Source: a virus. From it: DNA of 64,000 nt. The notes below the pieces were generated by a model. The model saw only the letters and a list, made by a program, of their open reading frames with translations. It was not told the DNA's origin and did no database searches. The stretch is taken from positions 1 to 64,000 of the IMG/VR virus record IMGVR_UViG_3300020057_001229. One strand, written 5' to 3'. Shown in pieces: positions 9,126-53,570 of this stretch. A program made the translations under genes and the position numbers. Each line of letters begins with the position of its first letter. The stretch's first letter is position 1.

Positions 9126-9201
9126 TGGAGCCCGAGGTCGGAGTCGAACCGACGACCTTCACATTACAAGTGTGCTGCTCTACCAACTGAGCTACTCGGG
9201 C
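9126..9201 (-). tRNA. tRNA-Thr(UGU)
   Basis: Cloverleaf; loop CTTGTAA; encoded CCA. Confidence 0.95.
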
Positions 9202-9212
9202 ATTTTAAAAAA

Positions 9213-9299
9213 TGGCGGAAACGGTGGGACTCGAACCCACAAGGCTTTTACACCCACTCGCTTTCCATGCGAGCCGACTACCAATTATCACACGTTTCC
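9213..9299 (-). tRNA. tRNA-Ser(GGA)
   Basis: Cloverleaf with long variable arm; loop ATGGAAA; G73 + CCA. Confidence 0.93.
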
Positions 9300-9307
9300 A
9301 TAAATAA

Positions 9308-9535
9308 TCATTCTTCACAAATCGCAACTCTGAAAATGGGGTCCTTATGAAACAGAGGAGGACAATCGTCGGATTGATACATATTTTCTACACACCCGAT
9401 AAACCCCTCGTCCCCTTCTCGATACTCTACTACTTTCTTTTCTCTCAGCATGAACTTTAAAAACTCACAATGCTCAGGTCTTTGAGCGACTACGGAGTAG
9501 AGTGCTAATTCTGATTCGTAGATCACTCGGTACAT
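9308..9535 (-). CDS. Hypothetical protein within the Ser/Thr tRNA operon
   Basis: Small ORF overlapping the stop of the upstream ORF. Confidence 0.5.
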   Translation of the reverse strand: MYRVIYESELALYSVVAQRPEHCEFLKFMLREKKVVEYREGDEGFIGCVENMYQSDDCPPLFHKDPIFRVAICEE

Positions 9536-9777
9536 TACGTCTCCATTTGAGCTAACAGCGGCGTTACACGAGCGTTTCTCTCTGCAAAATAAATAGGACT
9601 AGGCTGCTTAGCTATCCACTCAACGCACTCTTCTTCCGTATCGAAATCTGCTGCTACGATGTCATCTTGTTCGTCGATTACAAACCAAGCCTTCATCGAC
9701 TTTTCCGACCGCTCTTTACACTCGTCGTGGTACTTGAACCAAGAATCTGGCGGTCTGCCCACGTTTACATCATCCAT
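9535..9777 (-). CDS. Hypothetical protein within the Ser/Thr tRNA operon
   Basis: Small ORF with AGGTG SD. Confidence 0.55.
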   Translation of the reverse strand: MDDVNVGRPPDSWFKYHDECKERSEKSMKAWFVIDEQDDIVAADFDTEEECVEWIAKQPSPIYFAERNARVTPLLAQMET

Positions 9778-9794
9778 AAATCACCTTTGAAAAA

Positions 9795-9882
9795 TGGCGG
9801 AGCAAGTCCGATTTGAACGGACGGTACTTTTACATACGGCGGGTTTCAAGTCCGCTGGTTTAAACCGCTCACCCACTACTCC
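9795..9882 (-). tRNA. tRNA-Ser(UGA)
   Basis: Cloverleaf with long variable arm; loop CTTGAAA; G73 + CCA. Confidence 0.93.
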
Positions 9883-9894
9883 GTTATAAAGCAC

Positions 9895-10116
9895 TTACAA
9901 ACACCTCTGTAGGTTTCCGTTCTTATCTTGTTGCACATCCCAAACAGAACCGTCGTTTTCGACGATGACCGTAATGCGCCCTTCTACGAAGTCACACGTC
10001 ATACATTCGTACTTGTTGACGACACGAACGATGTGGTCTCCTGCAAAGGAGAGAACCATCTTTTCGCTGTTACCGTCCCAAGGGTGTCCTACGAGATCTT
10101 TCAAAACTTGCATCAC
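9895..10116 (-). CDS. Small protein, possibly protease-inhibitor-I78-like
   Basis: DLVG...VRVV...MTCDF..GRITV pattern; family call is tentative. Confidence 0.4.
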   Translation of the reverse strand: MMQVLKDLVGHPWDGNSEKMVLSFAGDHIVRVVNKYECMTCDFVEGRITVIVENDGSVWDVQQDKNGNLQRCL

Positions 10117-10135
10117 TACACTCCGAACTAAAGAA

Positions 10136-10221
10136 TGGCGGTAGCGGAGAGACTTGAACTCTCAAGGCTGTTACACCCGACCGCTTTCGAAACGGCTCCA
10201 ATACCATTATGGGACGCTACC
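10136..10221 (-). tRNA. tRNA-Ser(CGA)
   Basis: Cloverleaf with long variable arm; loop TTCGAAA; G73 + CCA. Confidence 0.93.
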
Positions 10222-10536
10222 ATATCAATAAAATTCAACCTTTGCACTTTTGCCAAACAACTTTTTGAGTCTCTCTTCCGACGCCTCTTTATCTTCTTCG
10301 GACCCCAACCGGGACCTTCGCCGTGGTACCGCTCGTGCTCTTCCAACAAGTCTGCCGCAGCGTAGATCTTGTTACCTAAGTCGTGCCTGATCTTGTCTAA
10401 TTCCTCAGCCGTGTATACTTCTTGAGCAGACGACCCTAAGCCAATTTGCTTACCATTACCTTGCTCCGCTTCAAGCTCGGCAACAGCCGGTAAGTCTTCT
10501 TCGTTATTCATTTTTCAAAGATCCTTAATTGAAGGT

Positions 10537-10579
10537 AAAAAGAAAGAACCCCGCTTCCTAGTCGGAGAGCGGGGTTCTT
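10537..10579 (-). terminator. Attenuator terminator upstream of the Ser/Thr tRNA operon
   Basis: AAGAACCCCGCT/AGCGGGGTTCTT 12-bp stem followed by TCTTTTT. Confidence 0.85.
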
Positions 10580-10605
10580 ATATCGTGCAAACACGCCGTA
10601 AGAAG

Positions 10606-10668
10606 TCACCCGCCCTCGGTCGTCGAGGAGGTTGAGCAGCTACTTGTCGTGGAAACGAAATTCTTCAT
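10606..10668 (-). promoter_or_regulatory. Ser/Thr-rich leader peptide MKNFVSTTSSCSTSSTTEGG
   Basis: 11 of 20 codons are Ser/Thr; its 3' end GAGGGCGGG..TTCTTA can pair with the terminator 5' arm. Confidence 0.85.
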
Positions 10669-10706
10669 ACGTTGGATAATCTCACAAGCAAAAACGAAAC
10701 GCAAGC

Positions 10707-11102
10707 TCACTTAGATACGTAGTGGTAGCCAAGTGCAAAAGTTACTAACAATATGAAGCCCCAAAGGCTACCGAAAAGCAACCACTCTAGCCAACACCAA
10801 TCTTGGAGACCACGGTGCGTCCACAAGATCTCGACACTCTTCTTCTCAGTCTTCTTATGTTGGATTACGAGGACAGCAGAGCGGGGGACGAAAGTCTTTT
10901 CGTCGATCATAATGACTTCTCGGTGCTTGAAGGCGTACTCCATATCGAACTTGCGCCAAACGAGCGGACCTTTTTTGTAGTCGTACCAGTCCGCTTCTTC
11001 TTGGATCAGCTTCGTGTAGGTGTTACCTTTGAGGTCTGTGATCTCAAAGGTGTAGACGTTCACCTCTACATGACGCTGCTCAATTACCGTTTCCCACCGC
11101 AT
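10707..11102 (-). CDS. Hypothetical protein with C-terminal TM helix
   Basis: ORF probably starting MRWETV; hydrophobic C-terminus. Confidence 0.5.
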   Translation of the reverse strand: MRWETVIEQRHVEVNVYTFEITDLKGNTYTKLIQEEADWYDYKKGPLVWRKFDMEYAFKHREVIMIDEKTFVPRSAVLVIQHKKTEKKSVEILWTHRGLQDWCWLEWLLFGSLWGFILLVTFALGYHYVSK

Positions 11103-11595
11103 GGAACGCTCCAAGTCTGTAGAGATCTGTGATGTAGCGCTGGAAGCGTTCGACATCTTTCTCAGTTAATTTACGGTTCTTGAGCCTATCAAGCCTTGCG
11201 TTGTCTTTCATGTCAAGGATTTTGATCTTACGGGCAACGGGGCTCTTTTCAATATTTTGCAAATACTCTTCGTGGTCGAGACCATCTCTCTTAGTAAGAG
11301 CGTCTACGATTTTGAGTTGGCTCGAAGTCATTCCCAAGTTCTCAAGGTCAGGCAAAGACAAGAAAGTATCTTCGACGGCATCGTGGAGCACTCCGCAGAT
11401 CATTTCATCTTCGGTGCCGAGCTGTTCCATGACACGCAGCGGATGCCGGATGTAAGCGTTCTTCCCTTTGTCCTCTTGCGTGCCGTGAGCTACGACGGCG
11501 ATTGCAATCGCTTTCGGAAGCGTCATAGGTCCGTCAAGCAATTTCATAAAGCTTTGCATGAGAACATTTTTGGTTTGTTCGCTTAGAACCGCCAT
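11080..11595 (-). CDS. HD-domain hydrolase, RelA/SpoT (p)ppGpp-hydrolase-like
   Basis: AHGTQEDKG..YIRHP, LHDAVEDT, ALTK, KILDMKDN. Confidence 0.8.
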   Translation of the reverse strand: MAVLSEQTKNVLMQSFMKLLDGPMTLPKAIAIAVVAHGTQEDKGKNAYIRHPLRVMEQLGTEDEMICGVLHDAVEDTFLSLPDLENLGMTSSQLKIVDALTKRDGLDHEEYLQNIEKSPVARKIKILDMKDNARLDRLKNRKLTEKDVERFQRYITDLYRLGAFHAVGNGN

Positions 11596-11597
11596 CG

Positions 11598-15728: not shown

Positions 15729-15805
15729 TGGTTGCGGGAGCGTGAGTCGAACACGCCGAGCTTTAGGTTATGAGCCTAACGAGCCTCCCTTGCTCCATTC
15801 CCGCT
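15729..15805 (-). tRNA. tRNA-Met(CAU), initiator-like
   Basis: Loop CTCATAA; unpaired 1:72 position; CCA; TTGACT-N17-TAGATT promoter directly upstream. Confidence 0.85.
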
Positions 15806-15850
15806 GAAACCTAATCTACACCAGATCTTCGTGGAGTCAAGACAACGCAA

Positions 15851-22225: not shown

Positions 22226-23413
22226 ATGGCTAAGGCTAAGGCTAAGAATCTGAAGGTTTTTGCGTTTCCTGCTGAAGCATTTTCCCAGTTTATAAACCCT
22301 AAGTCACCAGGAAGTTTAATAATCTCAGCCTTCTACACCCCGGTCTCGTCTTTAAGTATCCTACCTGCGGATAACAACCCCCGACCAGGATTCGTACCAA
22401 GCCCTAACGTCCGCAGGGAGGTTCTAGCTACCGTCTCCGAAACTCCTGATTCCGCCCCACTAGCAGCCATGAATCGCGGGCTACTTGCTCAGGCGGAGAG
22501 TGTCGAATACCGAGCAAAGGATCGTACAGTTCTCATCACTTTCGATTTAAGTGAAATCAAGTGTGGTTTCCAGGGTTTGTGTGATGGCAACACGACGCAA
22601 ACCACGATTGCGCAAGCCCTCGCTAAGGGCGTCGTTAACCCTGATCAATACATCCGCATTGAGGTTTTGACGGGTGCTTCCGCTCTTATCGCTGAGAGGA
22701 CGGCTCTGGCTCGTAACAACAGCTTGGCTGTCAACGCTTTGACTGTGCGCACCTACACGGGGGTCCATGACTCTTTGAGGAGCCTGTTAGTGCTTTGCCC
22801 TGACAACGTCGTCTTCTCTCAAGGAGATGAAGCCTCTCACCGCAAGAACCACGTTGACGCCGGCAACGTCGTCCAACTTCTCTGTCTTGCCCATCCACTT
22901 CTCGTGCGTGGGGGGGATATGAATAAAGCGAAAAGCCTTTATGTTGGCATGTCGCCAGCGTATAAGCTTCTTGAAGGGCAAGCCAGCAAGTTCGACATGT
23001 ACGAACCTGAGATTGTGCAAGAAATCTTAGGGCTATACGACAGCGTTCATGCAATCTTGGGACCTAAGCCTCGCCAAGTAAAGTCGGCAGGAGACAACGG
23101 CAGCATTTGGAAAGGGTCCTACAGCCCTCTTTTCTCTCGCAACGAGATCGTAGGGCACCGTCTCGGCAAGGGCTTCGCTTTTCCGCTGTTCTTTGCCCTG
23201 ACCTCCGCTTTGACTGTTGTAGATGGGAAAGTGGTTTGGAACATCCCCCTTGAGGATGTTCTAAACCTGTGCAAACGCAAGCGCGACTCGCTCGTCAACT
23301 ATTTCCAGAAGTACGACAACGACACTTTTGGGAAGGATGTGGCGCAGTGGAACATGGTTCACAGCTTGGTTTGGGGCACCGCAAGCGCTTCTAATAGTTT
23401 GGTAGCGGTGTGA
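22226..23413 (+). CDS. AIPR-like protein
   Basis: NNPR, NRGL, GLCDGNTT, ARNNSLAV motifs resembling the AIPR family; strong SD. Confidence 0.65.
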   Translation: MAKAKAKNLKVFAFPAEAFSQFINPKSPGSLIISAFYTPVSSLSILPADNNPRPGFVPSPNVRREVLATVSETPDSAPLAAMNRGLLAQAESVEYRAKDRTVLITFDLSEIKCGFQGLCDGNTTQTTIAQALAKGVVNPDQYIRIEVLTGASALIAERTALARNNSLAVNALTVRTYTGVHDSLRSLLVLCPDNVVFSQGDEASHRKNHVDAGNVVQLLCLAHPLLVRGGDMNKAKSLYVGMSPAYKLLEGQASKFDMYEPEIVQEILGLYDSVHAILGPKPRQVKSAGDNGSIWKGSYSPLFSRNEIVGHRLGKGFAFPLFFALTSALTVVDGKVVWNIPLEDVLNLCKRKRDSLVNYFQKYDNDTFGKDVAQWNMVHSLVWGTASASNSLVAV

Positions 23414-28253: not shown

Positions 28254-28328
28254 TGGCGACCCTGGCAGGAATCCAACCTGCACGAAGGCGTTAGAAGCGC
28301 CTGATGCTATGCATTACATCACAGAGTC
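28254..28328 (-). tRNA. tRNA-Arg(UCU)
   Basis: Cloverleaf; loop CTTCTAA; atypical T-loop TTGGATT; CCA. Confidence 0.85.
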
Positions 28329-28380
28329 AATTGTTTGCTGAAGAGAGGGGAGTGCGAACGTAAGATGCAAACGCGGAAGG

Positions 28381-28440
28381 TTACACCCGCCTGCGTTTTG
28401 CCTTAGAGAAAGATCTTGAAGATGTAGAGAGAAAGAACAT
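28381..28440 (-). promoter_or_regulatory. Arg leader peptide MFFLSTSSRSFSKAKRRRV
   Basis: AGA plus tandem CGC AGG CGG; hairpin over the stop codon; ends ~50 nt upstream of tRNA-Arg. Confidence 0.7.
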
Positions 28441-28494
28441 AGTAGTACCTAGATATTCACGTATACAATTTAGTATATTGTCTTCTGGAAAAAA

Positions 28495-28950
28495 ATGTCA
28501 AAGGGAAATTTCATGGATTATCCAATAGCCACCGTCCGCGAGATCAACGGAGAACTTTTTCTCGACGATCCTACGGCGCTTGCCGTCATCAAAGCCACCA
28601 GCCGCGCCGCTTGCCGTAAGACGTTTGAGATGCAAAGAGACCGCGTAGAGCACTTCGTCACTCGCACCAGTGCGCTCAACCTTTCGACGGAAGATGTTGT
28701 CATCGTTTTAGCCAACGCCGATGACCCTAACGGCAAACAGCTCGCCGAAGCCCTCATGCCGAACCACGATTGGCAAGCTTACCGCAACCTAGGCGAGCTT
28801 CCCTTTGCTCGCGGGCTTGCTGAGAGGGAAGGCATCCAGTGGTTCATAGAGGATATGGAGCCTGACATGGCTTCGGTGCTCAAGAACCATGCTGGAGTTG
28901 CTGTAGTCGTCGTAGACCACGGCGTCATAGAAGTTCTTTCGCCGTCGTAA
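28495..28950 (+). CDS. Hypothetical protein
   Basis: ORF. Confidence 0.6.
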   Translation: MSKGNFMDYPIATVREINGELFLDDPTALAVIKATSRAACRKTFEMQRDRVEHFVTRTSALNLSTEDVVIVLANADDPNGKQLAEALMPNHDWQAYRNLGELPFARGLAEREGIQWFIEDMEPDMASVLKNHAGVAVVVVDHGVIEVLSPS

Positions 28951-32360: not shown

Positions 32361-32414
32361 ATGCAATACTTTCTCCCTCCATTGCTACCCCTCCTGACCA
32401 AGCTCTTACCGTAA
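32361..32414 (+). promoter_or_regulatory. Leu/Pro leader peptide MQYFLPPLLPLLTKLLP
   Basis: 7 Leu and 4 Pro of 17 codons; TTGACG-N17-TACGGT promoter ending 6 nt upstream; hairpin over the stop codon. Confidence 0.85.
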
Positions 32415-32483: not shown

Positions 32484-32644
32484 ATGTTAAAATGACTCCA
32501 TATCAGTGTTCGTGCTGTGGCTCCAAGACGACGCTCCCAACGTTGGTTTGGTTGCCTGAAAAAGCGCCAGAGATAGTTAAGGTAGAATGTTTAAGGTGCG
32601 GGTTTGTGTGGTTGAAGCCGAAGGGCTTTAGTATCGTTCGATAA
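32484..32644 (+). CDS. Small zinc-ribbon protein
   Basis: CSCCG...CLRCG; GAGG SD; start approximate (zinc-ribbon frame begins at ATG 32492). Confidence 0.45.
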
Positions 32645-32645
32645 T

Positions 32646-32723
32646 CGGGCAGTGGGCTAATTGGTAAGCCGCTTGGTTTGGGACCAAGACATCATGCGAG
32701 TTCAAGTCTCGCCTGCCCGACCA
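32646..32723 (+). tRNA. tRNA-Pro(UGG)
   Basis: Cloverleaf; loop TTTGGGA; A73 + CCA. Confidence 0.93.
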
Positions 32724-32763
32724 CTTCCTTAGATTCGTTTGGGAACTCAAAAGGAGATCCCAA

Positions 32764-33129
32764 ATGTCTGACGACATAGAGAAAAAAAGAAAGTATTGGC
32801 GTGATTGGTACTACAGAAAGATGGATCAAGATCCTGAGTGGCGTAAAGCAGAATCAGAGCGGAATAGCGTCAAGCGCAAAGTTAAGAGGGACTGGTTAGT
32901 AGGGCTGAAAAAAAGTATGAAGTGCGCCAGATGTGATTTTTCAGATTTTAGGGCGTTGTGCTTCCATCACTCCGATCCTTCGCAGAAAAAGGGGGAGATC
33001 GCAAATATGATAAAAGAAAACTACGGCAAAGAGCGGATTTTGGAGGAGATGGCTAAGTGTGAAGTTCTGTGTCAGAATTGCCACCATATTGAACACTATG
33101 AACAGCGTACACAGTCTAAAGTCGCATAA
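32764..33129 (+). CDS. Free-standing HNH endonuclease
   Basis: CARC...LCFHH.DP..K...KCEVLCQNCH. Confidence 0.85.
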   Translation: MSDDIEKKRKYWRDWYYRKMDQDPEWRKAESERNSVKRKVKRDWLVGLKKSMKCARCDFSDFRALCFHHSDPSQKKGEIANMIKENYGKERILEEMAKCEVLCQNCHHIEHYEQRTQSKVA

Positions 33130-33359
33130 ATATCTTTTGAGTCTCGTGTGGTGGTGAAACTGGTTTACTTAGGATTGGGGGGAGAGAAGTAGGGCATCTA
33201 TAGGTTCTATAGGACCATTTTCACCTACTTCTCAAAGGGCTTTTTCAATGGCATATTTCAACGGTTTCGTTAGCGGCGTTCTATTTGGTCTCGGACTTTT
33301 CGTCGCTTCTGTGTTAGTACAGGCATTGTTCCATATGCCTTTGCTTGGGTAAATCTTCC

Positions 33360-33444
33360 GCTGGCATGGTGGAATTGGTAGACACATCAGTCTGAGAGGC
33401 TGACGGGGAAACTTGTGCAGGTTCGAGTCCTGTTGCCAGCACCA
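33360..33444 (+). tRNA. tRNA-Leu(GAG)
   Basis: Long variable arm; loop CTGAGAG; A73 + CCA. Confidence 0.93.
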
Positions 33445-33462
33445 TGTTTAGAAGAGAGTTCT

Positions 33463-33861
33463 GTGGAAATTAAAGGCACGCTAGCGGGTTGGTTTGAGAC
33501 TGGTTCTGAAGGTACCTATTGGACCCTTCAAGATGAGAAACACATCGACGACAAAGGCATGTACTCCTACGAAGGGATGCATGTACTAAAAAGCGGTATG
33601 CAGCTAGTTATCCACTATCCAAAGTCAGATAAAGTCTATTGGGAAGGTCAGCTTGTTCTCGTTCCGGGTTACGATCCGAAACTTTTGAAAAAGCTAGGGT
33701 TGCATTACTACGTAAAAAAGCATCCGTCAGGGCTTAAGCAGCTCTCACTCGGCGGCTACTGGATACATAATTTACCGGTCGGGTTTGATTTAGCAATTTG
33801 GTACCGGATCTTCTTTCTCGACGAAGGTTGGACCGGGACCTTAACCTTAATTAAGGACTAG
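33463..33861 (+). CDS. Hypothetical protein
   Basis: GTG start after the tRNA; FETGSEG.YW. Confidence 0.65.
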   Translation: MEIKGTLAGWFETGSEGTYWTLQDEKHIDDKGMYSYEGMHVLKSGMQLVIHYPKSDKVYWEGQLVLVPGYDPKLLKKLGLHYYVKKHPSGLKQLSLGGYWIHNLPVGFDLAIWYRIFFLDEGWTGTLTLIKD

Positions 33862-33864
33862 CTG

Positions 33865-34101
33865 ATGCTACGAATGACGTTAGGTGCCAAAGCATATCTT
33901 GCGGGAAAAGCTCTTACGACGCCGCTGCTCAATGATCCCGTAGGTGATGAAGTGATACGCAGGCTCGACAAAGAGGATAGTGACGATCAGTTCGATGCTT
34001 ACATGATGTCTTTAGGCGACGGTGCTTCGCCCGACGACGTAGAGCTTACAGACGAAGAGTTAGACGAGTTGCGAAGAAGCAGTGAAGAGTACGAAGACTA
34101 A
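33865..34101 (+). CDS. Acidic hypothetical protein
   Basis: AAGGA SD. Confidence 0.55.
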   Translation: MLRMTLGAKAYLAGKALTTPLLNDPVGDEVIRRLDKEDSDDQFDAYMMSLGDGASPDDVELTDEELDELRRSSEEYED

Positions 34102-34102
34102 A

Positions 34103-34186
34103 GGACCGATGATGGAATGGTAGACATGTCAGTTTCAAAAGCTGATGCTGTAAGGTGTGAGGGTTCAAGTCCCTCTCGGTCCACCA
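34103..34186 (+). tRNA. tRNA-Leu(CAA)
   Basis: Long variable arm; loop TTCAAAA; A73 + CCA. Confidence 0.93.
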
Positions 34187-34279
34187 TAGCGGGGACGTGG
34201 TGAAATCGATAGACGAAAAGGGCAGACTTACCCATAATGAAAACGACTATTCTAACCACTTCTCATAAAGAAGAGTGCC

Positions 34280-34566
34280 ATGCAACAGCTCATTAACATG
34301 TTTGTTGGGAATCTTCCAAAACGAGTGTCTACCATTCGAGAAGCACAAGAAAGTGGGGACCTAGCAGAGGTTCAAAATTTAGCACATCAGATGTTGGGAT
34401 GTGCTGAAGGTTACGGCTTCCCTCAGTTAGGGCAAGTAGCAAGCAAGCAAGCAAGCTCGAAGCACTAATAAAAGACCATGGCAGCGAGCATAGCATCGAG
34501 TTGATGATTAATGCATTCGATGCCCAATGCCACTGCATTATCATCAGGCATGGTAATAGGCACTGA
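34280..34566 (+). pseudogene. Hpt (histidine phosphotransfer) protein frameshifted at (GCAA)4
   Basis: LAHQMLGCAEGYGFPQL motif; continuation KLEALIK... lies in another frame ending at 34566. Confidence 0.8.
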
Positions 34567-34569
34567 AAT

Positions 34570-34654
34570 GGGGACGTGGTGAAATTGGTAGACACACCGC
34601 GCTTAGAATGCGGCGATGAAAGTCATGTCGGTTCAAGTCCGACCGTCCCCACCA
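34570..34654 (+). tRNA. tRNA-Leu(UAG)
   Basis: Long variable arm; loop CTTAGAA; A73 + CCA. Confidence 0.93.
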
Positions 34655-34683
34655 CTTTAAGTTAGCAAAACACATATCTCTAA

Positions 34684-34759
34684 GTCCACGTAATCCAACG
34701 GCAGAGATAGAGCGCTTAAAACGCTTCCAGCGTGGGTTCGAATCCCACCGTGGACACCA
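34684..34759 (+). tRNA. tRNA-Leu(UAA) with short variable loop
   Basis: 76-nt cloverleaf; loop CTTAAAA; A73 + CCA. Confidence 0.88.
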
Positions 34760-35197: not shown

Positions 35198-35329
35198 GTT
35201 CGGTTCCCCCATGTAGGTCTTACAAGCACTGTAAATGCCGTTGCGTTGGTTCGAACCCAACCCTCCCGGTAACGGGGGGTAGCTCAGTTGGTAGAGCACG
35301 AAATTTAGCCCTATAACCTTGAACCGAAC
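35198..35329 (+). ncRNA. YrlA-type Y RNA (tRNA mimic), copy 1
   Basis: Terminal stem GTTCGGTTC/GAACCGAAC; T-arm, loop-closed acceptor stem and D-arm in permuted order. Confidence 0.8.
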
Positions 35330-35373
35330 TTCACCCACCGCAAGGTGGGTGTCCTCTTTCTGGAGATATTTAT

Positions 35374-39243: not shown

Positions 39244-39254
39244 AACTTAGTATG

Positions 39255-42647: not shown

Positions 42648-43060
42648 AGACTTTCCCGTGCAAATTTTAGGCTGAATGGTGTACAATAGTACATCCACGC
42701 CTCGAACACTAAGTCAAAGATAAACCAAAGGAGTCGCCAACTTATGCCAATTGCAAAACGACTTTTAGCGAAAGCTGCCGCCCTCAGTCAGCTCGTAAGC
42801 ATCGAGGCTGAGAGCCTCTTTAGGATGTTCGAGAGACGCAACTACCGTGAGCAAGAAGTCGAGCGGATTCTTACGTGCTTCAAAGATATGGGAGCTAACC
42901 CTGAGAACCTAGAAGGCGAACGCAGGCGTCTATTGGAAGATGATCTCTACTTAGAGTCATGGCAGGAAGCGACATCTGCGTAAAAAATACGCAAAAGAAA
43001 AAAGCGAACGACACCGAAAAAGCTCTTGCACTCTTCGAGTGGTTCACTTAAAACCTTCCT

Positions 43061-43712
43061 TGTCGGAAGCACTGAAGCAAACGTCGCAAGACAAGCCTGC
43101 TTCGGGGACTGAGAAGAGATAAGGCTTTAAATCGTGCTTTCTCAAAATCGAGCCGACACTCGGTTGAGTTAGGGTTTAACTCAATGAAAAGCATTGGTGA
43201 CAATGCAAGTCGAACTTGTGACAAGACAAGCCTTAAAATTTGTCAGAGATCAGGTTCAACTAAAAACTCCCTCGAAGATATCAAATTCGAGGCAAGCCGA
43301 CTCTTGAACTGTAGAGGTTCAAGGCGTAACTGGAGATAGACAGCTTGCGGCTCTCCATGGGGAGAAAGAGTTTGACATCGTTCAAGCTCCCGGATCTTGA
43401 AAATCCGGACCTCTGAAACCCGTCCAGACATGACGTAAAAATGTACGCTTCTCGCTCAAAGGGTTAAACCTACGAGCAAACTATAAGGTTCCCTGTAAGG
43501 GACGTTAAAGGAGAAGGGCGATGGCGGAGAAAAGTTGGGATTGTAATTCTAGACCGATCATCTGGAATATCTAAACGCCCCCAACAGAGAGACAACTCTT
43601 CAAACAATCGGAACTGCAACAGGGATTAATTATCCCGCCTTCGGCTAAGAGGATTAGTGCTCATCTTAGGGTGAGCCGAGTTAGCCAGGAGTGTAACGGT
43701 CCTAGTTCCGCG
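43061..43712 (+). ncRNA. Large structured non-coding RNA candidate (~650 nt), unassigned
   Basis: No credible ORF; more than 12 hairpins; upstream TTGCAC-N17-TAAAAC; 3' domain closed by CGGAACT/AGTTCCG. Confidence 0.7.
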
Positions 43713-43717
43713 TCCGA

Positions 43718-43755
43718 GGAAGCCCGCTTAGGTTTACAGACCTAAGCGGGCTTCC
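43718..43755 (+). terminator. 16-bp perfect hairpin after the large ncRNA
   Basis: GGAAGCCCGCTTAGGT-TTACAG-ACCTAAGCGGGCTTCC; weak U-tract. Confidence 0.65.
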
Positions 43756-43838: not shown

Positions 43839-45329
43839 ATGCTGAAGGCAGTGCTGCGCATAGGAGGTGGTTTAGTCGCCGTGTTCGGTGTCGTGCTGGT
43901 GACGTACACACTTAAGAGGATAGACTCTTACCTCGCGGACACACCCCTGCTTCTAGGCATATCTTCGCTTACGCTGATCGCGTTTTTCTTCGGCTGGTGG
44001 TCCGCCGTCATCTCCGCGCTTGCTTTTATTACCCTCATTAAGCTCTACGTTTCGCCAGAAATCCACACGGTGTCTTTCAGTCTTTTTGTCGCTCAGACTG
44101 CGATCATTGCGGGGCTCATCGAGAAGCTAGGTAACGCACGCCGTAGCTGCTCAGACGAAGCTACCAAATGCCAAGAGACCGAACACGAGCTTCGAGCCGC
44201 AAAAGAGCACGCAGAAAGATCTAACCAGACTAAGGGAGAATTTCTAGCCAACATGAGCCACGAGCTTCGCACTCCTCTCGGTGTCATTCTAGGCTACAGC
44301 GAAATCATAGCGAACGACACGCCTTCAAAGGAAGAGAAGATAGAATATGCTGACGCTATTAAGCGCAATGGTGAAACGTTAGCCAGATTGATAGATGACA
44401 TACTTGACCTAAGTCTTGCAGAAGCACAAAAGATAAGTATTGAAATACTACCTACATGCCTTAAAGATCTATGTACAGTTTTAGAAAAAGAGATGACGCC
44501 TCTAGCTGTACTAAAAAATATACGATTAAAGGTACACTGCGCCGATGTTCCTAATAACATACGCACTGACCCAATTCGTCTTAGACAAATACTTAGCAAT
44601 CTAGTTAACAACGGTATTAAATTCACCCCTTACGGAGGTGAAGTAAGCGTGTATGTGGAAAAATATGAAGAGACGCTATGCTTCGTCGTTCGGGACAATG
44701 GTAAGGGAATTTCTACTGAAGAAGCTAAGAAGCTTTTCAAGCCCTTCTCACAAGCCGACAGCTCTACGACGCGGAAATATGGGGGGACAGGCTTAGGCTT
44801 AGCGCTTTCTAAAAAGCTTGCTCAAAGCCTTGGCGGGGATGTTTTTTTGCGGGAAAGCGTTCCCGGCAAAGGGAGCACATTCGTTGTTCAAATCCACTTG
44901 ACGCCGACATCCTTGCACGAGACCAAGAGCAAGCATAAACATTTTGACGGCGCTCTCGACGGTGTCCGAGTCCTTCTTGCCGACGATGCCTTCGATAACA
45001 GACTGCTTTTGAAAGCGCTTTTGAAGCCAACGGGTGCGCTGCTTCGACTAGTGGAAGACGGCGAGCAAGCGCTTCAAGCTGTGCAACAGCACGACTTTGA
45101 CGTTGTTTTCTTAGATCTTCAAATGCCTATAATGGACGGCTACGAAGCTTGCCGTGCGCTGAGAAGTCAAGGCTACACAAAACCTATCATCGCTTTGACC
45201 GCGCACGCTATGCAGGAAGAAAGAACCAAAACGAAGACTGCTGGGTTCGATGCCCATGTCACTAAGCCGGTCAACGTCGGAAACCTCGTGAGCGCAATTC
45301 GTGCCTCGCTCGACGCCAAACCGAGTTAG
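43839..45329 (+). CDS. Membrane-bound hybrid sensor histidine kinase with receiver domain
   Basis: FLANMSHELRTPL, NLVNNGIKFT, DNGKG, GGTGLGL, LADD...FLDLQMPIMDG...KP. Confidence 0.95.
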   Translation: MLKAVLRIGGGLVAVFGVVLVTYTLKRIDSYLADTPLLLGISSLTLIAFFFGWWSAVISALAFITLIKLYVSPEIHTVSFSLFVAQTAIIAGLIEKLGNARRSCSDEATKCQETEHELRAAKEHAERSNQTKGEFLANMSHELRTPLGVILGYSEIIANDTPSKEEKIEYADAIKRNGETLARLIDDILDLSLAEAQKISIEILPTCLKDLCTVLEKEMTPLAVLKNIRLKVHCADVPNNIRTDPIRLRQILSNLVNNGIKFTPYGGEVSVYVEKYEETLCFVVRDNGKGISTEEAKKLFKPFSQADSSTTRKYGGTGLGLALSKKLAQSLGGDVFLRESVPGKGSTFVVQIHLTPTSLHETKSKHKHFDGALDGVRVLLADDAFDNRLLLKALLKPTGALLRLVEDGEQALQAVQQHDFDVVFLDLQMPIMDGYEACRALRSQGYTKPIIALTAHAMQEERTKTKTAGFDAHVTKPVNVGNLVSAIRASLDAKPS

Positions 45330-50723: not shown

Positions 50724-51668
50724 ATGTTTTTCACTATCACGGCTGACCCCATTAAGGTCACAGAAGTAAAGAAGGCTCCAAGCCTTCCTATCAAGCAGAT
50801 CCTCCTCGACGAGAAAGGCGATAAGGTCTTAGAGAACATCTCAGACGAAGCAGAAGTCTTTTGGGCAGACGTAAAGAAAGCCTTCCCAGCTCTCGAAGCG
50901 CAGCTCAAAGCGATCTTCGGTGGTAAAGACCGTCTCTCTGTTGGCGATCTCAAAAAGAAGATGGGGACTGTAGAAGACGACGAAGCAGCTCTCTGGCTCT
51001 CGCACGTTGACTACAACGACGCATGGCGTATTCAGCGGGAGCTTCCTGAAAACGGCGACGACGATGAAGAAGGCAACAGGGTCGAGTATAAACAGATCGC
51101 GATCCAGCTCAACATCGGACCTTCACTTGTGAAAGCTATCGACGCTGACCCCATTGCGCAAAAGTTCTTCGAGGCTTACTCAAAAATGACTGAAGGTGAT
51201 CACCTTCACCCTAACCACACCCAGTCGATTGCTTGGGCGCGTGTCTACACCTTGAAAGACAAATGGATCATCGAAGAGCTTCAAAGCGATATTTGGGGCG
51301 CTAGTCTTAAAGCTAATGAAATTCCAGACGATGCTAAAGCCTACGACATCATCAATAAGATGCCGAAAGAGGAACAGTCTGACCTCGAACGCTTCTTTCA
51401 TAAGCACTTCATGGATTGGGACAAGAAGCTCATTGCATCCGTCATCAACATGGCGCGTAAGGCAGGTGTCAAAGACATCTATATGTGGGACGAGTCGATC
51501 AAGCAGAAGGTGACACGCTCCAAAAGCAAGCTCGACAAATACTACAAGATCGTACCGCGTGACTTAGGCTTCAAGAAAGATACGCTCAACATCGCAAACA
51601 AAGATCGTCAGGTGTGGCACCGCATTGTCGCCACCTTCAAAGACAGAATTACAGCGAGTCTCAAATGA
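50724..51668 (+). CDS. Hypothetical protein, paralogue of 3871-4755
   Basis: Shared motifs throughout. Confidence 0.8.
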   Translation: MFFTITADPIKVTEVKKAPSLPIKQILLDEKGDKVLENISDEAEVFWADVKKAFPALEAQLKAIFGGKDRLSVGDLKKKMGTVEDDEAALWLSHVDYNDAWRIQRELPENGDDDEEGNRVEYKQIAIQLNIGPSLVKAIDADPIAQKFFEAYSKMTEGDHLHPNHTQSIAWARVYTLKDKWIIEELQSDIWGASLKANEIPDDAKAYDIINKMPKEEQSDLERFFHKHFMDWDKKLIASVINMARKAGVKDIYMWDESIKQKVTRSKSKLDKYYKIVPRDLGFKKDTLNIANKDRQVWHRIVATFKDRITASLK

Positions 51669-52141
51669 AAATCGTAAAAGAGAAATATCAAATTGTAGCC
51701 AAAGATTGGTCTAACGAAACATATTGGGCTTGCTTCGCTTTCGAAGACGAGATCCCCGACGACCTCCACTGCACGCACAAGTTCTTCGGTGAACAAAGCG
51801 ACGAAAGCCGGGACAAGATCTTGGAGACGATGGATTCTTACTTCGCCAAGAAACCTTACGAGACCATCCAAGCCAAGTTTGACCACGAAGAGTTCTTCGG
51901 GGCTGATAAAGACGTTCGGGTTCTTCGGCTTGAGGACGGCGCTAGCCTCGATCCGTTTCTTCTCGATCTCCGCAAGAAGCTTGACGCTTTCGCCGACGAC
52001 AGCTTCCCCGGCTACAAGCCGCACGTCACGACGGACCTCCCCGTAGTCGAGAAGCCTCTGACACGCTACTGTCTTTGTCAGGGTGACAAGATTATCAAGG
52101 AGTGGAAAGCAATGGAGAAAAAAGCAGCAGCAGCAGCTTAG
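51665..52141 (+). CDS. 2H phosphoesterase (Acb1/LigT-like)
   Basis: Two HxT motifs: LHCT and YKPHVT; KYQIVA leader; ATGA overlap at 51665. Confidence 0.8.
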   Translation: MKIVKEKYQIVAKDWSNETYWACFAFEDEIPDDLHCTHKFFGEQSDESRDKILETMDSYFAKKPYETIQAKFDHEEFFGADKDVRVLRLEDGASLDPFLLDLRKKLDAFADDSFPGYKPHVTTDLPVVEKPLTRYCLCQGDKIIKEWKAMEKKAAAAA

Positions 52142-52194
52142 GGTTGACGAGTTCTGTGAGAGCTGCTAGGATTTGGGTAATGGGAGTTCACAAA

Positions 52195-52236
52195 ATGTTC
52201 CGTTCCGTAAATAACAATAATGAAGAAACAAGCTAG
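52195..52236 (+). promoter_or_regulatory. Asn/Glu leader peptide MFRSVNNNNEETS
   Basis: GGGAG SD; promoter TTGACG-N17-TAGGAT; four tandem Asn codons. Confidence 0.88.
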
Positions 52237-52261
52237 GGTCGAAAGTCCTTTCTGGCTTACG

Positions 52262-52290
52262 ACCCGTTTGGTAACCCAAGCGGGTTTTTT
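52262..52290 (+). terminator. Attenuator terminator upstream of tRNA-Asn
   Basis: ACCCGTTTGG-TAAC-CCAAGCGGGT plus T-tract. Confidence 0.88.
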
Positions 52291-52307
52291 ATTTGTATCG
52301 AATTTAT

Positions 52308-52385
52308 TCCGGTGTGGGGGAAGTTGGTAATCCCGCCTCGCTGTTACCGAGGAGCATGTACGTTCGATCCGTACCACCGGAGCCA
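52308..52385 (+). tRNA. tRNA-Asn(GUU)
   Basis: Cloverleaf; loop CTGTTAC; G73 + CCA. Confidence 0.92.
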
Positions 52386-52633
52386 ACTTTTTTAAAGGAC
52401 ACCATGAGAACTTTGAACACGCATCCGAATTGTCCGCCGACTGTCAGCAAAAACTCTGACGGTACCTTTACTGCACACGACATCGGCGAGATGTTGGATT
52501 GGCTTGCGGGAAGTCATGGGGACAGCGGTGTCCTGAAAATGTTGGCTCCAATGAAAGCAGTTGATACAGGTCGAGTCAGTGGTGTTGAGCCTGATGTTAG
52601 CGTTAGTTTAGGAAGTTACGAAGTGTGTGTAGT

Positions 52634-53137
52634 TTAAGCAGTTTCTAGCCTTATTTCTTGGTGTATTTCACGGTGGCAGTTAGCGCAGACCATAACACAT
52701 TTGTCTAATTCTTGTTTTGTACGTTCCCAAGATCTAGTGTGTCCTCCTTGAGAGGGATTGAAATCTTTCACGTTAGGGTCGAGATGGTGAAACTCAAGGG
52801 CGCTTACGCATTTACTGTAGCCGCAACGAGCACAGGAGCCTCCTTTATATGCAATAGATAGCTGCTTTAACTCTCGTCTTCTGTTCGTTACTTTGTCTTT
52901 ACTGTTACAGTTTATCGAGCAGAAACGTGTTTGGGTTCCAGTTAGAGGTTTTTGGCATACGTGCCATGTGCAATAGTTTCCGTTAGGTAGAGGGTTGCGT
53001 TCGTTTAGTGAGCGGGTATTGTGTAAGCCAAAGGGCGAGCAAGTAAGACAAAATTTGCGGTTACACAAATTTCTTTTTTTACCGTCAATTACAGTGTTTA
53101 TTGAGAAATGTGTGTTGCACTTTAGACAAGTAGGCAT
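52634..53137 (-). CDS. Free-standing HNH endonuclease with Cys-rich N-terminus
   Basis: CARCG...ALEFHHLDP..K...KC..VCANCH. Confidence 0.88.
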   Translation of the reverse strand: MPTCLKCNTHFSINTVIDGKKRNLCNRKFCLTCSPFGLHNTRSLNERNPLPNGNYCTWHVCQKPLTGTQTRFCSINCNSKDKVTNRRRELKQLSIAYKGGSCARCGYSKCVSALEFHHLDPNVKDFNPSQGGHTRSWERTKQELDKCVMVCANCHREIHQEIRLETA

Positions 53138-53202
53138 AAGTGTTTTCCGTAGCTAAGAGTTGGGTAACCAAATGGTGTTACTTAATCTAAGCGACGGTCA
53201 TG

Positions 53203-53290
53203 GGGAGAGTAGCCTATCGGCACGAGGCAGCGGCTTGTTAAGCCGCCAGTGGACGTAAGTCCGAAGTGGGTTCGATTCCCACCTCTCCCT
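53203..53290 (+). tRNA. Atypical tRNA with GUU anticodon and long variable arm, no CCA
   Basis: GGGAGAG/CTCTCCC acceptor, GCGGC-TTGTTAA-GCCGC, TGGAC-GTAA-GTCCG arm, GTGGG-TTCGATT-CCCAC. Confidence 0.75.
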
Positions 53291-53316
53291 CTTTTTTTCT
53301 ATAAGGAATTTTCGAT

Positions 53317-53358
53317 ATGCTGTTTCGACTAGAAGAAGAACAAATTAATTCGGGCTGA
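53317..53358 (+). promoter_or_regulatory. Glu leader peptide MLFRLEEEQINSG
   Basis: AAGGA SD; GAA GAA GAA; 3' TCGGGC is complementary to the terminator 5' arm. Confidence 0.88.
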
Positions 53359-53385
53359 GAGAGTCGGTAACGACAACTCTTTTAT

Positions 53386-53412
53386 GCCCGATCTTTGGAT
53401 CGGGCTTTTTTT
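53386..53412 (+). terminator. Attenuator terminator upstream of the tRNA-Glu pair
   Basis: GCCCGATC-TTTG-GATCGGGC-TTTTTTT. Confidence 0.9.
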
Positions 53413-53416
53413 ATGT

Positions 53417-53491
53417 GGCGTGCTCGTCTAGTGGTTAGGACGCTTGGTTCTCAGCCAGGAAAGAGGGGTTCAATTCCCCTGCACGCCTCCA
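53417..53491 (+). tRNA. tRNA-Glu(CUC)
   Basis: Cloverleaf; loop TTCTCAG; CCA. Confidence 0.9.
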
Positions 53492-53496
53492 AGTTC

Positions 53497-53570
53497 GGCG
53501 CATTCGTCTATTGGTAGGATTTCAGAATTTCAATCTGAAGAAAGGGGTTCAATTCCCCTATGCGTCACCA
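53497..53570 (+). tRNA. tRNA-Glu(UUC)
   Basis: Cloverleaf; loop ATTTCAA; CCA. Confidence 0.9.

Follow-up and report, generated by a model that had tools for sequence, protein, structure and literature searches.

Candidate leader-peptide attenuators upstream of tRNA genes in an uncultured phage

What decides when a phage transcribes its own tRNA genes? We examined this question in IMG/VR record IMGVR_UViG_3300020057_001229 (88,687 bp), which comes from a large, uncultured phage of microbial-mat origin. The window analysed here is the 64,000-nucleotide stretch at positions 1 to 64,000 of this record, and ARAGORN identified 15 tRNAs in it. These tRNAs are grouped by amino acid in separate units, matching what isotype-specific control would require. 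The original prediction, made from the sequence, was that each elongator-tRNA unit is preceded on the same strand by a short ORF, and all five peptides are indeed encoded as stated, each upstream of its unit and on its strand (Table 1). The same prediction spoke of tRNA operons; the units are mixed operons, in which small protein genes accompany the tRNAs. Within 500 nt 5' of the first tRNA of each unit, we counted one ATG ORF of 8–30 codons for Ser, two for Arg, two for Pro/Leu, one for Asn and three for Glu. Because there are just one to three candidates for each leader-bearing unit, the leaders were not cherry-picked, the scope for doing so being limited. For tRNA-Met(CAU), which had been put forward as an internal contrast without a leader, the same search found no ATG ORF, and a promoter-like site ends 7 nt 5' of the gene.

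Table 1. Coordinates of leader ORFs, predicted regulatory elements and tRNA units in the window.
Feature	Coordinates	Strand	Description
Ser/Thr leader ORF	10606..10668	-	20 codons + stop; sense codons 10668..10609
Ser/Thr antiterminator (predicted)	10565..10617	-	Leader's last three sense codons paired with terminator 5' arm, around small inner hairpin
Ser/Thr intrinsic terminator	10537..10578	-	11-pair G+C-rich stem 10578..10545, T run to 10537
Ser/Thr unit	9126..10511	-	ORF 10511..10128, tRNA-Ser(CGA), 73-aa I78-inhibitor-like ORF, tRNA-Ser(UGA), two small ORFs, tRNA-Ser(GGA), tRNA-Thr(UGU)
tRNA-Met(CAU)	15729..15840	-	Unpaired 1:72 position
Arg candidate leader	28381..28440	-	19 codons + stop; sense codons 28440..28384
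tRNA-Arg(UCU)	28328..28254	-	
Pro/Leu leader ORF	32361..32414	+	17 codons + stop; sense codons 32361..32411
Pro/Leu unit	32492..34759	+	50-aa zinc-ribbon ORF, tRNA-Pro(UGG), HNH endonuclease gene, tRNA-Leu(GAG), small ORFs, tRNA-Leu(CAA), (UAG), (UAA)
Asn-unit promoter-like site	52144..52172	+	9/12 consensus matches, extended -10 TG
Asn leader ORF	52195..52236	+	13 codons + stop; sense codons 52195..52233
Asn antiterminator (predicted)	52229..52270	+	6-bp core, 52236-52241 paired with 52260-52265
Asn intrinsic terminator	52261..52296	+	11 pairs (stem 52261-52286) + T run
tRNA-Asn(GUU)	52308..52385	+	First gene past Asn attenuator; full cloverleaf
Glu leader ORF	53317..53358	+	13 codons + stop; sense codons 53317..53355
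Glu antiterminator (predicted)	53350..53391	+	Last two sense codons 53350-53355 paired with terminator 5' arm 53386-53391, inner hairpin between
Glu intrinsic terminator	53386..53412	+	8 pairs (stem 53386-53405) + run of 7 T
tRNA-Glu(CUC) and tRNA-Glu(UUC)	53417..53570	+	

The composition of each leader was compared with that of all 604 ATG ORFs of 8–30 codons in the 88,687-bp record, both strands included. Of the 19 residues that follow Met in the Ser/Thr leader, 6 are Ser and 5 are Thr, an S+T score reached by one of the 604 ORFs, the leader itself. The Pro/Leu leader shows the strongest enrichment, with 7 Leu and 4 Pro in the 16 residues behind Met; its P+L score was also reached by 1 of 604, as was the N score of the Asn leader, in which four Asn codons in a row are followed by two Glu codons. 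The Glu leader has three Glu codons in a row and falls within the top three (3/604). The Arg leader, with 4 Arg, has an R score reached by 38 of 604 short ORFs, which is not distinguishable from chance. In a 5 × 5 cross table, every leader scored highest for the amino acids of its own unit. Among random 500-nt windows (n = 7056), the observed score was reached by 17 for Ser/Thr, 631 for Arg, 18 for Pro/Leu, 18 for Asn and 55 for Glu; the Fisher combined p for the five leaders was 2.2e-7, and these values are conservative because the true windows are included among those counted. The Arg leader alone gave p = 0.09 in this test, no more than chance.

The enrichment had been predicted for codons of the downstream tRNAs themselves. 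Decodable codons in leaders were 7/11, 2/4 and 9/11, compared with genome expectations of 0.57, 0.27 and 0.83, respectively, and two of the six Ser codons in the Ser/Thr leader belong to the AGY box, which no phage tRNA reads. The match between leader and tRNA is at the level of the amino acid and not of the specific codons read by the downstream anticodons. By amino acid, the predicted enrichment stands for Ser/Thr, Pro/Leu, Asn and Glu, and is not significant for Arg.

We masked the ribosome footprint, folded the RNA co-transcriptionally as far as the terminator loop, and compared each segment with 1,000 dinucleotide shuffles for both energy and arm occupancy. Three intrinsic terminators with a 5' arm complementary to the end of the leader had been predicted, and these proved real for Ser/Thr, Asn and Glu, each stem being followed by a T run. 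The leader stop codon adjoins or lies within the antiterminator's 5' half in each of the three cases, and the antiterminators formed with a stalled ribosome have energies of -17 to -26 kcal/mol. For Ser/Thr, 11 of 11 bases of the terminator 5' arm are sequestered when the ribosome stalls anywhere from Ser6 to Ser14, and 0 of 11 when it sits at the stop codon (z -3.77; 0/1000 shuffles did as well on both measures). In the ribosome-free fold, the end of this leader pairs with control codons 13–15 (a 1:2 hairpin) and the terminator forms. The Ser/Thr terminator is present in every fold, and none of 200 shuffles of its region folds as well (z -3.28); a simple scan overlooked it, its loop being larger than that scan allows. 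For Asn, the antiterminator core starts with the final base of the stop codon and its partner is the base of the terminator 5' arm. A stall at Asn6–8 sequesters 10 of the 11 bases of this arm, whereas 5 of 11 are in weak pairs when the ribosome has reached the stop codon (z -3.83; 1/1000 shuffles). For Glu, the corresponding values are 6 of 8 and 0 of 8 (z -4.79; 0/1000 shuffles). The Ser/Thr terminator ends about 25 nt 5' of the first gene of its unit (start codon at 10511), the Asn terminator 12 nt before tRNA-Asn and the Glu terminator 4 nt before tRNA-Glu(CUC). This leaves no space for a promoter between terminator and genes, which would be expressed by read-through alone. The tRNA-Asn(GUU) at 52308..52385 gave no match to the Rfam tRNA model.

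Could these terminators simply belong to the transcription units before them, with chance short ORFs, constitutive leaky read-through and a coincidental amino-acid match? A same-strand gene or tRNA does precede each of them (gene 51614..52141, tRNA-Asn 53203-53291 and gene 10707..11156), terminator-like and promoter-like sites are common, the latter no more so than in shuffles, and the Arg ORF is within chance. We nevertheless regard this explanation as very unlikely, given that four leaders rank first or within the top three of the record, each for its own unit, with the combined p given above, that the antiterminators sit at leader stop codons and are 3.8–4.8 s.d. more stable than shuffles, and that terminators end 4–12 nt before tRNAs without a promoter of their own. 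When the whole leader is folded to equilibrium with the ribosome stalled, the terminator is still favoured, and an attenuation model therefore needs kinetic, co-transcriptional control. The trp attenuator likewise depends on such control.

Signals for expression of the leaders differ between units. Shine–Dalgarno cores precede 39 of 87 long ORFs versus 9.6% of random positions; one lies at 52182-52186, 8 nt 5' of the Asn leader ATG, and another at 53303-53307, 9 nt 5' of the Glu leader. No such core was found before the Ser/Thr or the Pro/Leu leader, and promoter-like hexamers there were below the scan threshold. Traced backwards from its ATG, the Ser/Thr frame stays open as far as a GTG at 10710..10708, and this GTG shares bases with the stop codon of the gene upstream (10707..11156). 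The Pro/Leu ATG follows a weak -10-like hexamer by 7 nt, so this leader may be leaderless. Since promoter-like sites are no commoner than in shuffles, the site of the Asn unit is weak evidence. The Glu leader ORF begins only 25 nt 3' of the second tRNA-Asn (53203-53291) and must therefore be transcribed from upstream.

The missing Shine–Dalgarno core in two of the five leaders would be accounted for if the short ORFs were untranslated and the switch were an RNA-only or factor-dependent riboregulator, such as a T-box-like or protein-binding element responding directly to tRNA or to some other signal; in ribosome-free folds, purine-rich runs of control codons can also pair with terminator T runs. 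This is the least probable of the alternatives that we considered. There were no matches to T-box or other cis-regulatory families, the gathering score being reached by tRNA matches only, and at a permissive threshold the non-tRNA matches in 51900-53700 were weak sRNA ones far below the cut-off. The leaders, at about 100 nt, are much shorter than T-boxes, the cognate runs are confined to the frame with an ATG that ends at the antiterminator, and the stop codons lie exactly at the antiterminator arm in three of three cases.

The two remaining leaders lack this architecture. Ahead of the Arg candidate lies the window's best promoter match (28501..28472, 11/12), but the region of this candidate has no terminator, the hairpin at 28401..28367 being without a T run, and the ORF may be a chance occurrence. 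No intrinsic terminator follows the Pro/Leu leader, the region of which folds no better than shuffles (z -0.66); its spacer is skewed towards C over G (skew 0.20, about the 95th–99th percentile), and the 50-aa zinc-ribbon ORF stops 1 nt 5' of tRNA-Pro(UGG). The Pro/Leu leader follows the same amino-acid logic, and might conceivably act by way of Rho or by affecting how the neighbouring zinc-ribbon ORF is translated. Of the proposed leader-peptide attenuators gating phage tRNA genes, then, those of Ser/Thr, Asn and Glu are supported by the stall-dependent choice between antiterminator and terminator in masked folds; Arg, neither enriched nor followed by a terminator, and Pro/Leu, for want of an intrinsic one, are not.

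We consider it likely that at least three tRNA units (three Ser plus Thr; Asn; two Glu) are under classical ribosome-mediated transcription attenuation, with each tRNA set probably made only when ribosomes decode its codons slowly. Transcription would enter the short leader ORF, with its control codons for the same amino acids as the tRNAs downstream. With ample charged cognate tRNA, the ribosome would reach the stop codon and cover the 5' half of the antiterminator, the intrinsic terminator would form and transcription would stop just before the tRNA genes. With slow cognate decoding, the ribosome would stall 10–40 nt upstream and the antiterminator would form first, taking the base of the terminator 5' arm, so that RNA polymerase would read into the tRNA genes and the interspersed small ORFs. 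New phage tRNA, once charged, would relieve the stall, giving negative feedback with a separate circuit for each amino-acid group. The attenuators for Asn and Glu would be nested in a single operon; two Glu codons are present in the Asn leader as well. Decoding might be slow if the host tRNA pool serves these codons poorly, becomes depleted as infection proceeds or is cleaved by a nuclease of the host. The sequence shows the ORFs with their compositional bias, the terminators and the mutually exclusive pairings with their geometry; from these we infer that the leaders are translated and coupled to RNA polymerase, in which direction the switch responds and what triggers it physiologically. The purpose may be rescue from anticodon nucleases; a simpler demand-and-supply feedback fits as well.

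Real, translated attenuators could also report general translation capacity or amino-acid starvation and time whole mixed operons rather than the supply of specific tRNAs. The response of the trp, his and thr leaders to charged tRNA, and hence to amino-acid starvation, is established, and attenuators of this kind here would share it. The one to five small protein genes that units carry beside their tRNAs, and a match to amino acids rather than to the codons of the encoded anticodons, would suit such a role. General timing does not, however, need leader amino acids that equal the downstream tRNA isotypes, as they do in four of five units, and the Glu attenuator governs nothing but its two tRNA-Glu genes, the next gene being at 53625. 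We judge this reading unlikely, although the strongest of the alternatives, and favour control of specific tRNA supply.

How widespread is the design? The nearest relative compared (70% capsid identity) has 3 tRNAs, and none of the three is preceded by a cognate leader. A diverged relative (one contig, run X5) retains the stretch 52229-52317, comprising antiterminator, terminator and tRNA start, and the sole indel listed is located in the loop of the antiterminator. That contig lacks the 540-bp HNH gene, and 52037-52228, a stretch with the promoter-like site and Asn leader codons 1 to 11, is not alignable, so conservation may not extend to the leader in this relative. A scan of IMG/VR for tRNA-Asn genes preceded, at equal spacing, by four Asn codons yielded seven stretches, and none of the seven had a short ORF with a terminator. 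By eye, we saw no cognate leaders in a 33-tRNA array of another phage or in the cultured Aeromonas phage 65; the design is thus not general. In the literature searched, we found no description of leader-peptide attenuation of tRNA genes.

The closest parallels are the leaders of enterobacterial amino-acid operons (thr, ilv, trp, his, leu and phe), in which a short ORF likewise contains a run of regulatory codons and the position of the ribosome selects antiterminator or intrinsic terminator. Multivalent leaders (thr, sensing Thr and Ile, and ilv) sense two amino acids with one leader, as would those for Ser+Thr, Pro+Leu and Asn+Glu here, and a 1:2 hairpin enforces termination without translation, as predicted for the Ser leader. 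The phage elements resemble the Rfam leader families neither in sequence nor by covariance model, the sole match being a 14-nt terminator tail (E 7.6). Enterobacterial leaders regulate biosynthetic enzymes, whereas the targets here are phage tRNA genes with small ORFs; the sensed charged tRNA would derive from the product of the regulated gene, which makes the loop direct, unlike that of the amino-acid operons. The pheM leader attenuator controls pheST, the phenylalanyl-tRNA synthetase operon, by the level of one charged tRNA. It too is leader-peptide attenuation of a component of the translation apparatus (homology was compared by Rfam scans), but its target is a synthetase encoded by a bacterial chromosomal gene rather than a phage tRNA gene. 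T-boxes work without an ORF, through direct binding of uncharged tRNA. They resemble the present elements in that the state of one tRNA species switches terminator and antiterminator before translation-related genes; the phage elements differ in being built around an ORF and in lacking a T-box match.

Salmonella mgtL and mgtP are, in outline, proline-codon leader ORFs with Rho-dependent or terminator-less control (PMC3641672). The Pro/Leu leader resembles them in being rich in Pro codons, without an intrinsic terminator and followed by a C-over-G spacer, and differs in that its region has no prominent alternative stem-loops. Phage tRNAs have been described as counter-defence against tRNA-cleaving immunity (eLife 2023, PMC10264068; Nature 2024, PMC11464382; Nat Commun 2024, PMC11555353). 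The abstracts of these studies concern the tRNAs themselves, which replace depleted or cut host tRNAs, and do not mention leader peptides that control how these tRNAs are transcribed. A switch set off by stalling would be well suited to such replacement. The genes attenuated here would be phage tRNA genes, instead of the known biosynthetic or synthetase targets.

Fifteen tRNA genes were called by ARAGORN in the window, where they are grouped by amino acid into units. Small protein and HNH endonuclease genes are interspersed with them, so that the units are mixed operons; the term tRNA operons used in the original prediction holds for the presence of tRNA units but not for pure tRNA content. 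The IMG/VR record that carries them is 88,687 bp long (the window being its first 64 kb), is classed as a provirus and is estimated to be 32% complete. Its genes include those for a major head protein (PHROG 2522, E 6e-59), a thymidylate synthase, a tail-fibre-like protein and several HNH endonucleases. The nearest relative that we reached is a 236-kb viral contig with 70% identity in the capsid protein, and near-identical DNA is present in microbial-mat metagenomes. All six runs listed are DNA runs, mostly from microbial mats, and no RNA run holding the stretch was among them. Gene content, the distant relative and the occurrence in mat metagenomes together indicate a large uncultured phage.

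Five short ORFs had been predicted to precede the elongator-tRNA units, and re-translation recovered all five at their positions, on the strand of their tRNAs. These leaders start with ATG and have 13–20 codons. The 500-nt stretches before the units contain few ATG ORFs of 8–30 codons, namely 1 (Ser), 2 (Arg), 2 (Pro/Leu), 1 (Asn) and 3 (Glu), so the choice of leaders left little freedom; upstream of tRNA-Met, predicted to be leaderless, there were 0. We scored every ATG ORF of 8–30 codons on both strands of the whole record (604 ORFs) by a binomial test for enrichment in the amino acids of each unit. The Ser/Thr leader (11 of 19 residues are Ser or Thr), the Pro/Leu leader (11 of 16 residues, the strongest composition signal of the five) and the Asn leader (four consecutive Asn) each ranked first of 604 for S+T, P+L and N, respectively. 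The Glu leader was within the best 3 for E and the Arg leader within the best 38 for R, and when all leaders were scored against all units, every leader had its top score for the amino acids of its own unit. Random 500-nt windows containing an ORF that reached the observed score numbered 17 (ST), 631 (R), 18 (PL), 18 (N) and 55 (E) of 7056, giving a Fisher combined p = 2.2e-7 for the five leaders, with the true windows included in the counts. Cognate enrichment before every elongator-tRNA unit, as originally proposed, is therefore borne out for Ser/Thr, Pro/Leu, Asn and Glu but is unsupported for Arg (38/604), where the Arg content of the leader could be chance.

The match is one of amino acids and not, as had been claimed, of particular codons. 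Cognate-amino-acid codons readable by the downstream anticodons made up 7/11, 2/4 and 9/11, which we do not read as above genome usage (0.57, 0.27 and 0.83), and we rejected codon-level matching to the anticodons on this basis. Two of the Ser codons in the Ser/Thr leader are from the AGY box, and the phage encodes no tRNA for these. Among the five leaders, only those of the Asn and Glu units have Shine-Dalgarno cores; the frame of the Ser/Thr leader opens at a GTG that overlaps the stop codon of the upstream gene.

Coordinates of tRNA units, leaders, switch elements and HNH endonuclease genes (window positions)
Feature	Position	Strand	Details
tRNAs Ser(CGA), Ser(UGA), Ser(GGA), Thr(UGU)	10.2-9.1 kb	-	ARAGORN
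tRNA Met(CAU)	15.8 kb		ARAGORN
tRNA Arg(UCU)	28.3 kb		ARAGORN
tRNAs Pro(UGG) and four Leu	32.6-34.8 kb		ARAGORN
tRNAs Asn, Asn, Glu(CUC), Glu(UUC)	52.3-53.6 kb		ARAGORN
Ser/Thr leader	10668..10606	-	
Ser/Thr terminator	10578..10545, T run to 10537	-	11 pairs
Arg leader	28440..28381	-	
Pro/Leu leader	32361..32414	+	
Asn promoter-like site	52144-52172	+	
Asn leader	52195-52236	+	13 codons: four Asn, then two Glu; Shine-Dalgarno core 8 nt before ATG
Asn antiterminator core	from last stop-codon base; pairs with 52260-52265	+	6 bp
Asn terminator	52261-52286, T run to 52296	+	11 pairs
tRNA-Asn	from 52308	+	behind Asn terminator
Glu leader	53317-53358	+	three Glu codons; Shine-Dalgarno core 9 nt upstream
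Glu terminator	53386-53405, seven T	+	8 pairs; ends 4 nt before tRNA-Glu(CUC)
HNH endonuclease genes inside or beside tRNA units	32764-33129	+	
	52634-53137	-	
	26967-28106	-	
	57529-58641	-	

An intrinsic terminator lies between the leader and the regulated genes in three of the five units (Ser, Asn and Glu), each with a 5′ arm complementary to the end of the leader, as predicted; terminator scans and folds found none after the Pro/Leu and Arg leaders. The pairing with the arm involves the last three sense codons of the Ser/Thr leader, the last two of the Glu leader and, in the Asn element, a core that starts at the last base of the stop codon. In the ribosome-free fold of the Ser/Thr element, the end of the leader pairs instead with control codons 13–15 and the terminator forms, an arrangement shared with regions 1 to 4 of the trp leader. 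Each of the three complete elements spans about 100–170 nt, and the gap between each terminator and the next gene is too short for a promoter, so those tRNAs can be made by read-through only. We considered whether the hairpins are bidirectional terminators that serve genes on the opposite strand and rejected this for Asn and Glu, as the sequence before these hairpins gives no T run in that direction.

The Asn and Glu elements share one operon, in which tRNA-Asn is followed by a 77-amino-acid ORF, a second tRNA-Asn, the Glu attenuator and two tRNA-Glu genes. Because the Glu leader starts 25 nt past the second tRNA-Asn, it must be transcribed from upstream, and because the tRNA-Glu pair lies in the Asn operon too, the two Glu codons of the Asn leader fit the operon as a whole. 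The HNH gene at 52634–53137 (−) interrupts this operon on the opposite strand; a contig from a diverged relative (metagenome run X5) lacks it, with a joint that skips 540 bases, as expected of a mobile homing endonuclease.

To model the switch, we folded the nascent RNA up to the terminator loop; the ribosome footprint was represented by masking all bases from the 5′ end through the position 12 nt downstream of the A-site codon's first base. With the ribosome stalled at codons 6–14 of the Ser/Thr leader, 11 of 11 bases of the terminator 5′ arm were sequestered, and 4 of 11 at codon 17. Stalls on the control codons sequestered 10 of 11 arm bases in the Asn element (8 of 11 at the fourth Asn) and 6 of 8 in the Glu element (5 of 8 at the third Glu). 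Antiterminator energies with a stalled ribosome ranged from −17 to −26 kcal/mol across the three elements, and a ribosome that had reached the stop codon left 0 (Ser/Thr), 5 (Asn) and 0 (Glu) arm bases paired. We then replaced the free segment with 1000 dinucleotide shuffles per element. Relative to these, the z scores of the antiterminator energy were −3.77 (Ser/Thr), −3.83 (Asn) and −4.79 (Glu), and 0, 1 and 0 shuffles per 1000, respectively, equalled energy and arm occupancy jointly. Arm occupancy alone was equalled by 11, 100 and 426 per 1000, so most of the signal comes from stability. When the whole region was folded, the z scores were −3.28 for Ser, −2.12 for Asn and −2.67 for Glu. In these models, the antiterminator of all three elements would exclude the terminator, and its 5′ half is predicted to be covered by a ribosome at the stop codon and free when the ribosome stalls. 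For the full transcript with a stalled ribosome at equilibrium, the terminator is still the minimum-energy fold; the model thus requires kinetic, co-transcriptional control, as classical attenuators do.

The attenuator reading as a whole is supported by masked folds and shuffles for Ser/Thr, Asn and Glu, is plausible for Pro/Leu, which has no terminator, and is unsupported for Arg. The Pro/Leu leader lacks a Shine-Dalgarno core, and its ATG lies 7 nt past a weak −10-like hexamer (a site not listed by a simple scan); its mRNA may be leaderless. The Pro/Leu region folds no better than shuffled sequence (z −0.66; 49 of 200 shuffles fold equally well). Rho would load on a C-rich, G-poor, unstructured tract after the leader; the spacer that follows the Pro/Leu leader has a C-minus-G skew of 0.20 in its core, about the 95th–99th percentile of the genome (0.175 and 0.25 in 40-nt windows), and the Arg spacer reaches 0.27–0.30. 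Downstream of the Pro/Leu leader lies a 50-amino-acid zinc-ribbon ORF, 32492–32644 (+), whose stop codon is 1 nt before tRNA-Pro. Sequestration of the ribosome-binding site of this ORF by the leader was considered and set aside: the pairing appears in folds, yet the region does no better than shuffles. Rho-dependent or translation-coupled control of the Pro/Leu unit is possible, and attenuator control there remains plausible. The Arg ORF lies behind the highest-scoring promoter match in the window (11/12), and its hairpin has no T run. At tRNA-Met, a promoter-like site ends 7 nt before the first base, with the terminator of the preceding gene upstream, and position 1:72 is unpaired, which we take to recall an initiator tRNA.

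Several other genes accompany the tRNA units. The first ORF of the Ser unit, 10128–10511 (−), extends 94 nt into tRNA-Ser(CGA) before its stop codon, and tRNA processing would cut its message and that of the zinc-ribbon ORF at or within their 3′ ends. A 73-amino-acid ORF between two tRNA-Ser genes, 9895–10116 (−), gives an above-cut-off match to the I78 family of peptidase inhibitors (E 3.9e-7), and two tRNA-Leu genes flank a 62-amino-acid Hpt-domain ORF, 34280–34468 (+). The gene at 43839–45329 (+) codes for a hybrid histidine kinase that includes a receiver domain (HisKA, HATPase_c and Response_reg); the kinase and the Hpt protein could form a phosphorelay together. Elsewhere in the window we found a BCS1-like AAA ATPase, 56210–57505 (+), a weak match, just under the cut-off, to the abortive-infection-related family AIPR, 22226–23413 (+), and a transposase-like gene, 2354–3448 (+).

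Some of the tRNAs are themselves unusual. Of the two tRNAs with an Asn anticodon (GUU), the second, 53203–53291 (+), is 89 nt long, has a long variable arm and, unlike its neighbours, lacks an encoded CCA. Long variable arms characterize class II tRNAs, which in bacteria are those for Ser, Leu and Tyr, and the charging identity of this tRNA may be other than Asn. ARAGORN draws complete cloverleaves for tRNA-Asn(GUU) at 52308–52385 and tRNA-Met(CAU) at 15729–15805; the Rfam tRNA model matches neither (for tRNA-Asn, even at E up to 10). At 35244–35341 (+), the tRNA-like part of YrlA (Y RNA-like) matches with 28.8 bits (E 3e-4, below the gathering score), overlapped by a weak tRNA match of 18 bits, with no tRNA called by ARAGORN. 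The stretch 43026–43755 was flagged as ORF-free and structured; the Rfam scan of the window at gathering score returned tRNAs only.

Comparison of the contigs of four runs revealed near-identical copies in runs X3 and X4 and the diverged relative in X5. One X5 contig retains 52229–52317 at at least 80% identity, and the sole indel among those listed falls in the antiterminator loop; 52037–52228, which includes the first part of the Asn leader, could not be aligned. Capsid relatives were found at 70–71% identity only, and bacterial genomes gave one weak match of 39 residues. Scans of IMG/VR with the 251- and 1049-amino-acid neighbour proteins gave no match. The 314-amino-acid neighbour had 25 homologues in a protein search, and a profile built from 21 of its homologues reached 4 viral and 24 metagenome loci, all without tRNAs. 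Conservation of cognate leaders before the tRNA genes of related phages, a check suggested with the original prediction, was not observed at any of 6 tRNAs in three related or loosely related viral records (3, 2 and 1 tRNAs). A degenerate IMG/VR pattern, in which four Asn codons precede the anticodon loop and T loop of a tRNA-Asn by 85–115 nt, returned 7 stretches, none with a short ORF and terminator. A 17-letter tRNA-Asn arm matched 2 contigs, one of which is a 33-tRNA array of another phage with HNH-like ORFs in the gaps; by eye, no cognate leaders were seen in these gaps, nor in any of 8 gaps before tRNAs in the 16-tRNA locus of cultured Aeromonas phage 65. The attenuator regions have only tRNA and HNH pieces in common with GenBank phages.

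On the strength of the modelled folds and the composition of the leaders, we consider it likely that the Ser/Thr, Asn and Glu elements, at least, are functional, cognate-specific attenuators of tRNA transcription. Read-through is predicted to depend both on leader translation and on how much charged cognate tRNA is available. As the regulated genes are tRNA genes, the ribosome would gauge the supply of the operon's own product, a direct feedback on decoding capacity. A wider proposal, which we hold to be rather doubtful, is that the units form a modular surveillance of tRNA supply, with one translation-speed sensor per amino-acid group. The sensors would register a loss of host tRNAs separately for each codon family, whether it came from anticodon nucleases, other tRNA-cleaving defences or host shut-off, and within seconds the phage would transcribe precisely those of its tRNAs that match. 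Such a network would act as a counter-defence induced on demand, and no earlier case of leader-peptide attenuation would have the sensed tRNA itself as its regulated product. If the attenuators of the tRNA units work in the way proposed, they would account for a phage's ability to keep many tRNA genes at no cost while the host pool suffices. The elements would then be natural, compact sensors of single tRNA species, usable as reporters of tRNA depletion, and would connect phage tRNAs, in a way open to experiment, with the immune systems that cleave tRNAs and have been described since 2023.

Leader-peptide attenuation is textbook knowledge for genes that serve amino-acid biosynthesis or transport and for synthetase genes; thr and ilv have multivalent leader attenuators, and pheM is the leader of a synthetase operon. 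In the window, the Rfam models Trp_leader, His_leader, Thr_leader and Leu_leader gave no match at gathering score, where the only matches were tRNAs, and a Trp_leader match of 11.3 bits (cut-off 41) covered the terminator tail only. For the T-box, the window gave no match that reached the gathering score, and 51900–53700 gave none even with E allowed up to 1. We accordingly set aside a T-box or another known RNA family, having no covariance-model match, and a captured host biosynthetic attenuator, having no Rfam leader match; as no model of the leader families or T-boxes matches, the phage elements are an analogue and not a homologue of these. A full-text literature search found no description of leader-peptide control of tRNA genes, in line with the original prediction. 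The nearest known systems are the multivalent thr and ilv leaders and pheM, with which the phage elements would have the mechanism, classical leader-peptide attenuation, in common. What is new, and sets them apart from classical attenuators, is the target, tRNA genes in a phage, where the sensed species would derive from the regulated product.
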